A DNA stretch of 64,000 nt, taken from assembly GCF_013122565.1 (NCBI RefSeq), contig NZ_CP053258.1; one strand, written 5' to 3'. Positions within the stretch are counted from its first letter, which is position 1. Each line of letters starts with the position of its first letter. Origin of the DNA: Escherichia coli. GTDB taxonomy: Bacteria; Pseudomonadota; Gammaproteobacteria; Enterobacterales; Enterobacteriaceae. A model generated the notes under the pieces. The model saw only the letters and a list, made by a program, of their open reading frames with translations. It did no database searches and was not told where the DNA came from. Shown in pieces: positions 4,073 to 52,811 of the stretch. The translations under genes and the position numbers were made by a program.

Positions 4073-4149
<77 letters not shown>

Positions 4150-5542: not shown

Positions 5543-5641
5543 TGCCGGATGCGGCGTGAACGCCTTATCCGGCCTACAAATCATGCAAATCCAAAATATT
5601 GCAGGAGTTATGTAGGCCTGATAAGCGTAGCGCATCAGGCA
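5543..5641. repeat. REP/BIME palindromic elements (two REP units)
   Basis: gccggatgcggcgtgaacgccttatccggcctaca and tgtaggcctgataagcgtagcgcatcaggca, typical enterobacterial REP consensus. Confidence 0.8.
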
Positions 5642-8199: not shown

Positions 8200-8390
8200 G
8201 GTACTCCTCGGCTTGATGCACCGATCGTGACGCAAAATTCACTTTGATACAAGGATAGTGCTAACCATCAGAATTATCTGGATATCCTGGCGAAGCCGCG
8301 TAAGTAACATATGCTGAATAGTGTTAGGCATTAATTTTAGCCTGTTAATCAATACTATTAAGATTTATTAATCGCTTTAAGGAGAAGATG

Positions 8391-8618
8391 ATGAAAAAGA
8401 CTGCCGCAATTATTTCTGCCTGTATGCTGACTTTTGCCCTGAGCGCCTGTTCCGGTTCAAACTATGTGATGCACACCAATGACGGACGTACCATCGTCTC
8501 TGACGGCAAACCACAGACTGATAACGATACCGGTATGATTTCGTATAAAGACGCTAATGGCAACAAACAGCAGATCAACCGTACTGACGTGAAAGAGATG
8601 GTCGAACTGGATCAGTAA
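8391..8618 (+). CDS. ygdI: Small lipoprotein YgdI (DUF903)
   Basis: 75 aa from the second ATG. Lipobox LSAC. SD ggag 6 nt upstream. Confidence 0.9.
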
Positions 8619-8634
8619 TTCGCGATCGCAAGGT

Positions 8635-8840
8635 AAAAAAAAGCACCGCAATTAGGCGGTGCTACATTAATCACTATGGACAGACAGGGTAAATGTACAG
8701 GAAGTGAAAAAAGGTAGCTTTGCTACCATGGTCTGAATCGCAGACCAATTGCAAACACAACAACACAACATCACAACCGTAAGCCAAAAGTTCACCAGAA
8801 CACGCATTCCGATAAAACTTTTCGTTCCGGCTCAGGAAGT
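8635..8840 (-). ncRNA. gcvB: GcvB small regulatory RNA
   Basis: Reverse complement reads ACTTCCTGAGCCGGAACGAAAAGTTTTATCGGAATGCGTGTTCTGGTGAACTTTTGGCTTACGGTTGTGATGTTGTGTTGTTGTGTTTGC..., ending in the hairpin GCACCGCCTAATTGCGGTGC plus T8. Includes the GU-rich R1 region. Divergent from gcvA as in K-12. About 206 nt. Confidence 0.92.
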
Positions 8841-8968
8841 GCCGCCACTATAGGTATTTGCTGGTAGAAGCTCAACGGACAATTTATAATGGCTCAGATT
8901 AAAAAAACTAATAGGTTACACAGTGTGATCTAATTGTTAAATTCATTTAACATCAAAGTTTAAAAGCC

Positions 8969-9886
8969 ATGTCTAAACGATTACCACCGCTAAATGCCTT
9001 ACGAGTTTTTGATGCCGCAGCACGCCATTTAAGTTTCACTCGCGCAGCAGAAGAGCTTTTTGTGACCCAGGCCGCAGTAAGTCATCAAATCAAGTCTCTT
9101 GAGGATTTTCTGGGGCTAAAACTGTTCCGCCGCCGTAATCGTTCACTCCTGTTGACCGAGGAAGGTCAAAGCTATTTCCTCGATATCAAAGAGATATTTT
9201 CGCAATTAACCGAAGCGACGCGTAAACTCCAGGCCCGTAGCGCCAAGGGGGCGTTGACGGTCAGTTTACTCCCTAGTTTTGCCATTCATTGGTTGGTTCC
9301 GCGACTTTCCAGCTTTAATTCAGCTTATCCGGGAATTGACGTTCGAATCCAGGCGGTTGATCGTCAGGAAGATAAGCTGGCGGATGATGTTGATGTGGCG
9401 ATATTTTATGGTCGGGGCAACTGGCCGGGGCTACGGGTGGAAAAACTGTACGCCGAATATTTATTGCCGGTGTGTTCGCCTCTACTGCTGACTGGCGAAA
9501 AACCCTTGAAGACCCCGGAAGATCTGGCTAAACATACGCTATTACATGATGCGTCACGCCGTGACTGGCAGACATATACCCGACAATTGGGGTTAAATCA
9601 TATCAACGTTCAGCAAGGGCCAATTTTTAGCCATAGCGCCATGGTGCTGCAAGCGGCTATCCACGGGCAGGGAGTGGCGCTGGCAAATAACGTGATGGCG
9701 CAATCTGAAATTGAAGCCGGACGTCTTGTTTGCCCGTTTAATGATGTTCTGGTCAGTAAAAACGCTTTTTATCTGGTTTGTCATGACAGCCAGGCAGAAC
9801 TGGGTAAAATAGCCGCCTTTCGCCAATGGATCCTGGCGAAAGCCGCTGCTGAACAAGAAAAATTCCGCTTTCGTTATGAACAATAA
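8969..9886 (+). CDS. gcvA: LysR-family glycine cleavage system regulator GcvA
   Basis: 305 aa, LysR HTH N-terminus. Synteny with gcvB. Confidence 0.95.
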   Translation: MSKRLPPLNALRVFDAAARHLSFTRAAEELFVTQAAVSHQIKSLEDFLGLKLFRRRNRSLLLTEEGQSYFLDIKEIFSQLTEATRKLQARSAKGALTVSLLPSFAIHWLVPRLSSFNSAYPGIDVRIQAVDRQEDKLADDVDVAIFYGRGNWPGLRVEKLYAEYLLPVCSPLLLTGEKPLKTPEDLAKHTLLHDASRRDWQTYTRQLGLNHINVQQGPIFSHSAMVLQAAIHGQGVALANNVMAQSEIEAGRLVCPFNDVLVSKNAFYLVCHDSQAELGKIAAFRQWILAKAAAEQEKFRFRYEQ

Positions 9887-27011: not shown

Positions 27012-27377
27012 GTCGACAGGGAGTCAGACAACGAAGTGAACATCAGGATGATGACACTTCTGAAGGACACACCAGGATGGTGTTTCAGGGAAAGGCTTCT
27101 GGATGAAGCGAAGAGGATGACGCAGGACGCGTTAAAGGACACCTCCAGGATGGAGAATGAGAACCGGTCAGGATGATCCGGTGGGTCAGGAAGGCCAGGG
27201 ACACTTCAGGATGAAGTATCACATCGGGGTGGTGTGAGCAGGAAGCAATAGTTCAGGATGAACGATTGGCCGCAAGGCCAGAGGAAAAGTTGTCAAGGAT
27301 GAGCAGGGAGCAACAAAAGTAGCTGGAATGCTGCGAAACGAACCGGGAGCACTGTGAATACAGTGCTCCCTTTTTTT
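27012..27377 (+). ncRNA. csrB: CsrB sRNA (CsrA-sequestering)
   Basis: About 366 nt with roughly 18 GGA-containing motifs (caggatg, aaggaca, caggaag). Ends in hairpin gggagcactgtgaatacagtgctccc plus T7. Sits between syd and yqcC as in K-12. The 5' end is approximate, +/-5 nt. Confidence 0.92.
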
Positions 27378-27422
27378 ATTCCTGCTATCCTTCGCGGCAG
27401 TTTTTCTTATTGAGGTTGCTTT

Positions 27423-52394: not shown

Positions 52395-52658
52395 ATATTG
52401 CCGGATAAATTAAACGCCTCTGTCAGAAATGATGGGGGCGTTTTTATTTTGCGAGCAGCATTCCTGATTTTAAACGTGAACGCCGCTGGAAGAATTATCA
52501 GGTATAGAATGGCGTCGGGTGCTTGAGGCTGTCTGGCGTTAAGCATTCGCGAGGTTCCAGATGGACAAAAGCCCCAGGCGATATTTCTATCAACCTGAGG
52601 CTTACGTTCGAACCCAAACAATTCGAATGTTAGTCTCTTCTTTGCAGGGAGGCAAGAC

Positions 52659-52811
52659 ATGCTGACAAAATATGCCCTTGTGGCAATCATCGTACTGTGT
52701 TGTACAGTACTGGGATTCACGCTGATGGTAGGCGACTCGTTGTGTGAGTTGAGTATCAGAGAACGTGGTATGGAGTTTAAGGCAGTTCTCGCTTACGAAT
52801 CGAAGAAGTAG
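52659..52811 (+). CDS. Hok/Gef-family type I toxin (50 aa; below ORF-track cutoff)
   Basis: Translates to [50 protein letters not shown]. One TM helix and a conserved C-terminal SLCE...AYES.K block as in plasmid R1 Hok (from memory). SD agggagg 7 nt upstream. An overlapping upstream 34-codon ORF (52561..52665) ends 7 nt into hok, like a mok reading frame. Confidence 0.8.

Follow-up and report, generated by a model that had tools for sequence, protein, structure and literature searches.

The gcvB small RNA gene in the gcvA-ygdI gap of an Escherichia coli genome

The gcvA-gcvB-ygdI region

Between the genes gcvA and ygdI of the window, by which the whole 64,000-nucleotide stretch of DNA that was analysed is meant, lies a small RNA gene of 206 nt on the minus strand (8635..8840), with its 5' end at 8840 and its 3' end at 8635. 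Upstream of it gcvA (8969..9886, plus strand) encodes the 305-aa LysR-family activator of gcvB and gcvTHP, the product matching NCBIfam NF008352 with 512.8 bits against a cutoff of 288. The gcvA start is 128 bp from the gcvB 5' end, and as the two genes lie on opposite strands they have the divergent arrangement that the earlier note on this DNA had claimed. At the other end ygdI (8388-8618, plus strand) is convergent on the 3' end of gcvB and is separated from it by a gap of 16 bp. The order of the genes is that found in K-12 (rlmM-ygdD-gcvA / gcvB / ygdI-csdA-csdE-tcdA), and the product of gcvA has no amino acid differences from that of K-12, with 16 nucleotide differences in the gene.

A Rfam 15 scan of the entire window at gathering thresholds gave a match to RF00022 (GcvB) at 8840..8635 on the minus strand, with a score of 199 bits (E 1.1e-46), almost five times the 42 that is set as the gathering score, and the match spans model positions 1-204 of 204 and is not truncated. 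The earlier note, made from the letters alone, had described a minus-strand RNA of roughly 206 nt at 8635-8840 that matched K-12 GcvB base for base, and had named the covariance model and an alignment to K-12 as the checks; the model returned exactly this strand, length and position, and direct comparison with gcvB of K-12 MG1655 (b4443; NC_000913.3 2942696-2942901) found 206 of 206 nucleotides identical. The predicted minimum free energy of the RNA is -62.1 kcal/mol (z = -3.63), with none of 200 dinucleotide shuffles folding as well. The further claim that the feature is absent from the ORF track was right only for the RNA itself, which is unrepresented there, but the mechanical ORF list does contain two ORFs that overlap it, one of 46 aa with an ATG start that is wholly inside gcvB on the sense strand (8667..8807, minus strand) and one of 64 aa that clips the gcvB 3' end (8457..8651, minus strand).

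Stems, seeds and terminators

A pattern scan based on the R2 region of the RNA, run on species-representative genomes, found 120 loci in the Enterobacterales, from Escherichia to Yersinia, Proteus, Photorhabdus, Xenorhabdus, Edwardsiella and Plesiomonas, and the alignment used here holds 105 distinct GcvB homologues. It is apparent from this alignment that the R1 core and the R2-R3 region are invariant and that the stems vary. The Rfam structure was derived from a family model in which E. coli is itself included. On the alignment it has 85.9% of its cells paired, and sliding the 3' partners by 1-3 columns lowers this to 33.6-50.5%. Both partners are changed in 19 pairs, where shuffles give 11.1 +/- 1.5, and the covariation score of 0.138 compares with 0.088 for the shuffles, with none of 500 shuffles reaching any of the observed values. 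The compensatory changes are located in the upper part of SL1, in SL2 and in SL3, with none in SL4. This pattern argues that the consensus structure of SL1-SL5 has been maintained during evolution, SL4 being the one stem without compensatory support.

The first stem-loop, SL1, is placed by the Rfam consensus structure at nt 9-59 of gcvB (8782..8832, minus strand). Its upper stem carries compensatory changes, with all 8 of the 8 pairs in helices 3 and 4 having double changes. Together with SL4 it provides the two sites at which the sponge RNA SroC pairs (PMC9299463). Two groups of homologues have insertions in the apical part of SL1, these being ~30 nt long in Xenorhabdus innexi (L116, 3708-3937) and X. 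indica (L087, 5575-5805) and ~5-12 nt long in two loci of Atlantibacter (L106, L118); R1, R2 and the terminator are unchanged in these homologues.

Between SL1 and SL2 lies R1, the G/U-rich single-stranded seed GTTGTGATGTTGTGTTGTTGTGTTTGCAATT (nt 64-94; 8777..8747, minus strand), which had been reported from the sequence alone and is indeed present, the richest 30-nt window being 90% G+T. The core of R1, TTGTGTTTGC (nt 79-88 and on through C90), is invariant in the 105 homologues, and the predicted probability of R1 being unpaired is only 0.51 in an unconstrained fold. SL2 follows at nt 94-112 (8729..8747, minus strand) and is found in the Rfam structure as well as in the minimum free energy and centroid folds, with three pairs having double changes. 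SL3 (nt 114-134; 8707..8727, minus strand) and the T6 behind it make up t1, an internal Rho-independent terminator that the terminator scan placed at 8727..8713 + T6; three of its pairs have double changes and 92.5% of its cells are paired.

Downstream of SL3 is R2, CACTTCCTGTACATTT, with the conserved region CACUUCCUGUACAUUU, found as an exact sequence at nt 135-150 (8691..8706, minus strand). R2 is invariant in the 105-homologue alignment, partly by construction as R2 was itself the search pattern, and it essentially serves the repression of cycA (PMC9299463). SL4 (nt 145-177; 8664..8696, minus strand; Rfam structure) holds in its loop the seed R3 (approximately nt 151-165, ~8690..8676, minus strand), for which the point mutants G156, G160 and C162 have been described (PMC9299463). 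The pairs of SL4 are weakly supported, with no double changes and 70-80% of cells paired, and an alternative hairpin can be drawn, in which UCACU pairs with AGUGA (alignment columns 206-247, gcvB nt 133-170), that would enclose R2 and R3 and replace the Rfam SL4. As all pairs of the alternative hairpin are invariant, covariation cannot choose between the two. This hairpin was one of only three elements that RNAalifold recovered from the MAFFT alignment, the others being the base of SL1 and the terminator; that result was set aside and counting on the Rfam structure was preferred, because a sequence aligner mis-registers the variable stems.

The RNA ends with stem-loop 5 and a T-run, which form the terminal Rho-independent terminator t2 and the presumed Hfq-binding 3' module (8635..8663, minus strand; terminator scan). 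The hairpin (8663..8642) has 8 pairs, 6 of them G-C, and a loop of 6 nt, and it is followed by the T-run at 8642..8635. The terminal hairpin and T8 that had been called from the letters are thus both there, an 8-bp stem and, at the very end, exactly 8 T, with the detail that the first T of the run is also the last base of the stem, leaving 7 of the 8 after it. The stem of SL5 is almost invariant, with 96.6% of cells paired across homologues, and the U tail is unpaired with a probability of 0.99. A Rho-independent hairpin at the 3' end with a U-tail of at least 6 is the module that binds the proximal face of Hfq, and at the level of sequence the 3' end of gcvB is what would be expected of an Hfq-dependent sRNA, the binding of Hfq itself being presumed. 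PMC1557403, citing Urbanowski et al. 2000, describes two Rho-independent terminators in E. coli gcvB, from which RNAs of ~130 and 206 nt arise, with ~90% of transcripts ending at t1 and the 206-nt form needed to repress oppA and dppA.

The terminal hairpin (8619-8663 region) is also 16 bp past the ygdI stop, and on the plus strand it has an A-run before it and no T-run after it. It was considered as a bidirectional terminator that would also serve the convergent ygdI, and this was rejected as the plus strand has no T-run after the hairpin. For the same reason transcription of ygdI may read through, antisense to gcvB.

Conservation, promoter and the alternatives to an active small RNA gene

Of 5426 complete E. 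coli genomes 5425 have gcvB, and in 5389 of them it is at least 99% identical. The one genome without a match aside, two of the 5,426 have a match of only 80-90% identity and are possibly mislabelled as to species, and one extra copy was found on a plasmid. Over the 5 kb around gcvB there are 84 differences from K-12 (1.7%), none of which falls inside the gene, and gcvB shows 0 differences in 206 positions where the flanks diverge by 1.6-5.4%. Compared with locus L035, gcvB has 0 differences in 206 where 11.1 would be expected from flanks that diverge by 5.41% (Poisson P 1.4e-5), with locus L081 the flanks are at 5.46% and gcvB at 1 of 206, and with E. albertii the flanks have reached 11.9% and gcvB has 2 differences in 206 (P 7e-9). 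Zero substitutions against the 3.4-11 that would be expected from the flanks argue for purifying selection on gcvB that is continuing.

The association with gcvA is equally stable. gcvA is divergent from and adjacent to gcvB in 101 of the 102 enterobacterial loci that have a GcvA tblastn match, and in the one remaining locus it is also on the opposite strand, with a truncated match; the loci that have no GcvA match almost all have too little upstream sequence. One locus from a Saccharibacteria MAG (L076) is apparently the one with 10.5 kb of upstream sequence and no gcvA match; it has 36% identity to gcvB and was excluded as a chance match to the R2 pattern.

A sigma-70-like promoter at 8875..8847 fits the 5' end annotated in K-12 (A8840). 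It consists of a -35 hexamer TTGAGC (8870..8875, minus strand) and a -10 hexamer TATAGT (8847..8852, minus strand) that ends 6 nt before A8840 (+1), the promoter scan giving a 17-nt spacer and 9 of 12 matches. The -35 hexamer is conserved in 102 distinct upstream regions of Enterobacterales and the -10 hexamer lies in columns with at least 95% conservation; across these regions nearly every position from -72 to +1 is conserved at this level. The part upstream of the promoter, from -72 to -37 (8877..8912, minus strand), forms a conserved block with at least 95% conservation over Enterobacterales, and includes ATTAGTTTTTTTAAT (8912..8898, -72..-58), which fits a T-N11-A dyad. T-N11-A is the pattern of sites bound by LysR-type regulators, and this box, or the block around it, is a putative activator site for GcvA. 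The legend to Fig. 1 of PMC1557403 places a GcvA-binding region in the gcvA/gcvB control region or spacer, and control of GcvB is known to be exerted by GcvA and GcvR, with induction by high glycine (PMC9299463). For the gcvB described here the conserved promoter, the T-N11-A box and the intact gcvA are consistent with activation by GcvA in response to glycine and with repression by GcvA together with GcvR. The 128-bp intergenic region itself has two substitutions relative to K-12.

The ORF within the gene raises the question of whether gcvB has a dual function, being both an sRNA and the message for a hydrophobic, cysteine-rich peptide of 46 aa, MRVLVNFWLTVVMLCCCVCNWSAIQTMVAKLPFFTSCTFTLSVHSD, which would be read on the same strand, with its ATG at 8807 and its stop at 8667. 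The ORF begins with an ATG and runs in the sense of the RNA, and this ATG and the N-terminal half are kept in 58 of 114 homologues, although all of these are from close Enterobacteriaceae and the half that is conserved corresponds to SL1 and R1, which are kept for reasons of the RNA. The E. coli frame with its stop is found in only 24 of the 114; in a further 20 the C-terminus is frame-shifted, giving 44 aa, in 10 there is a stop at codon 29, in 4 the ORF ends in other ways, and in 56 there is no start or there are fewer than 20 codons. Nor are the indels that separate lineages multiples of three, as with those of 7-8 nt in R1. The position of the ATG in SL1 is apical, a GGA stands directly next to it and a spaced Shine-Dalgarno sequence is lacking. 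The hydrophobic and Cys-rich character of the product arises because the ORF reads through the G/U-rich R1. It is also stated in PMC1557403, again citing Urbanowski et al. 2000, that the gcvB RNAs are not translated. The coding reading of the internal ORF was rejected on the grounds that its frame is unconserved in the 114 homologues, and a peptide-encoding gcvB is considered very improbable. Low-level translation in Escherichia, Citrobacter and Salmonella-type lineages, where it would concern the 24 frame-keeping homologues, is given just as little credence; if it were true, GcvB would be a dual-function sRNA like SgrS/SgrT.

A quite different possibility is that the sequence is a silent relic, unexpressed or non-functional in this strain. 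Loss of gcvB can occur, as in one E. coli genome the gene is interrupted by an IS4-like element. The copy in the window has no interruption and has the very sequence of the functional gene of K-12, its promoter and upstream block agree with a cross-species consensus that, for almost all positions between -72 and +1, at least 95% of sequences share, and the adjacent gcvA is intact with no amino acid changes from K-12. A relic would moreover be expected to have picked up some of the 3.4-11 substitutions predicted from the divergence of its flanks, of which there are none, and it is scarcely conceivable that this copy of gcvB is silent. The interrupted gene belongs to E. coli OkiPb01677 (L123, NZ_AP042483.1, 3501-5060), in which the match to gcvB breaks off at nt 125 and continues at another point, so that it lies in two places of the record, with an IS4-like ISVsa5 transposase annotated between gcvA and ygdI; it looks like a natural disruption of gcvB.

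GcvB as a regulator, related RNAs and the annotation of the window

There is next to no doubt that 8635-8840 of the minus strand is the gene for GcvB, the Hfq-dependent trans-acting sRNA of Enterobacterales, mechanism included. Every feature by which RF00022 is defined at the level of sequence is found in this gcvB, none of the data contradict the identification, and the reading of the feature as GcvB in the earlier note agrees with synteny, the position of the promoter, the seeds, the terminators and covariation across 105 homologues. It is a known gene in its usual locus, ordinary in its kind, whose RNA shuts down the uptake of amino acids and peptides under nutrient-rich conditions. GcvB is a noncoding sRNA of ~200 nt, divergent from gcvA, with more than 50 genes of E. 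coli under its direct repression, chiefly those for amino acid and peptide transporters and metabolic enzymes, with R1 serving most targets and R3 in SL4 serving others such as phoP and lrp (PMC9299463). As the RNA is base for base identical to that of K-12, its intrinsic properties are the ones published for K-12.

The mechanism that is proposed from these properties would start with transcription from A8840 by the sigma-70 promoter (TTGAGC / TATAGT), for which the sequence and its conservation are given above. From the literature it would be expected that GcvA activates gcvB when glycine is high and that GcvA with GcvR represses it, the T-N11-A box at -72..-58 being the candidate GcvA site. 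Transcription would then terminate either at t1, where a hairpin and U6 would give the ~130-nt form, or at t2, giving the 206-nt form; both terminator sequences are present here, with their function taken from the literature. The five stem-loops, the stems of which are backed by covariation, would keep R1, R2 and R3 available. With Hfq, R1, or for some targets R3 or R2, would pair with C/A-rich mRNA sequence at or just upstream of ribosome-binding sites, the literature giving as targets the transporters of amino acids and peptides and the enzymes of amino acid metabolism, including dppA, oppA, cycA, gdhA, lrp and phoP. Such pairing would block the initiation of translation and promote decay of the mRNA, also as reported for GcvB elsewhere. 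Turnover of GcvB itself would probably follow the published route, in which SL1 and SL4 pair with the SroC sponge and RNase E then degrades the RNA (PMC9299463).

Among the genes of the 64-kb window sdaC, sdaB, argA, gudP, csdA and fucP were looked up in the regulon paper and none is listed there as a GcvB target; as no reported target lies within the window, pairing was checked against dppA of K-12 only. R1 (nt 64-92) and positions -44..-12 of the K-12 dppA leader give a duplex of -26.0 kcal/mol directly 5' of the GGAG Shine-Dalgarno sequence, the core being a 10-nt perfect complement, AACAUCACAA. The complementarity of R1 and dppA speaks for the site that has been published, but the statistic is modest: shuffled dppA leaders give -20.2 +/- 3.0 kcal/mol and 9 of 200 mononucleotide shuffles reach -26.0. 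When duplexfold, which ignores intramolecular structure, was run on the dppA leader with the whole of GcvB, it returned an end-to-end duplex of -93.5 kcal/mol that has no meaning; this was discarded, and the run restricted to R1 was kept.

The closest known relative is gcvB of K-12 MG1655 (b4443, RF00022), which has the same sequence, neighbours, orientation to gcvA and ygdI, promoter hexamers and terminators, the differences lying outside the RNA as the two spacer substitutions and the 84 across 5 kb. GcvB of Salmonella enterica (subsp. diarizonae and arizonae; L065, L083) has the same five stems, identical R1, R2 and terminator stem and a divergent gcvA, and differs by a few substitutions that are mostly in SL1, in the SL2/SL3 loops and in the terminator loop; between E. 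coli and S. Typhimurium the difference has been given as 10 nt (PMC9299463). More distant is the GcvB of Yersinia (L013, L057, L058, L069, L096), with ~75% identity and an R1 that is 7 nt shorter (TGTGGTTGTGATGTTGTGTTTGC), in which the sequences of SL1 and SL2 differ yet the pairing is kept. That of Yersinia pestis resembles the E. coli RNA in having two terminators (~130/206 nt), in activation by GcvA and repression by GcvR, and in the repression of dppA, and differs in having two extra bases between the t1 stem and the U-run (PMC1557403).

Other sRNAs, for example MicF, RybB and Spot 42, are like GcvB in being Hfq-dependent and multi-target, in pairing by a single-stranded seed at or near ribosome-binding sites and in having a 3' hairpin with a U-tail as Rho-independent terminator. 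GcvB differs from these in being longer, in having several seeds (R1, R2 and R3) and C/A-rich targets, and in its control by GcvA/GcvR and glycine and by the SroC sponge (PMC9299463).

Finding gcvB here adds nothing new biologically, and the practical point is the gap in annotation. That ORF-based annotation misses the gene, as had been suggested, is well borne out, as 60 of 60 sampled RefSeq E. coli records have no feature under the match. The feature table of O157:H7 has no ncRNA between gcvA and ygdI, and the curated record of K-12 MG1655 has the ncRNA gcvB (b4443) annotated there. In the mechanical ORF list the spurious 46-aa ORF stands in place of gcvB. It is therefore worth marking 8635-8840 on the minus strand as gcvB, lest the apparently empty gap between gcvA and ygdI seem unexplained.

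The source strain is not K-12-like, the best of the 5,426 complete E. coli genomes being 98.9% identical over positions 1-25000 of the window. Over 40000-64000 the best E. coli genomes reach no more than ~95-96% identity, and in those genomes the matches extend over ~41-42 kb, against 24 kb here, in the vicinity of cas3/casA/cysJI/pyrG. It would seem from this that ~17 kb is missing from the window in this part or is present in a divergent version.

Other RNA genes were found in the same window. A full-length CsrB sRNA at 27021-27380 (plus strand; RF00018, 384 bits against 71), ~18 kb from gcvB, would likewise be missed by an ORF track. A sok antitoxin RNA at 52517-52674 (plus strand; RF01794, 113 bits, the gathering score being 59) implies a probable chromosomal toxin-antitoxin locus of the hok/sok type. 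The remaining matches are the ES036 (CssrF) sRNA at 5577-5619 (plus strand; RF02751, 46.5 bits, where 37.6 is the gathering score) and a tRNA gene at 4076-4149 (minus strand; 61.4 bits).
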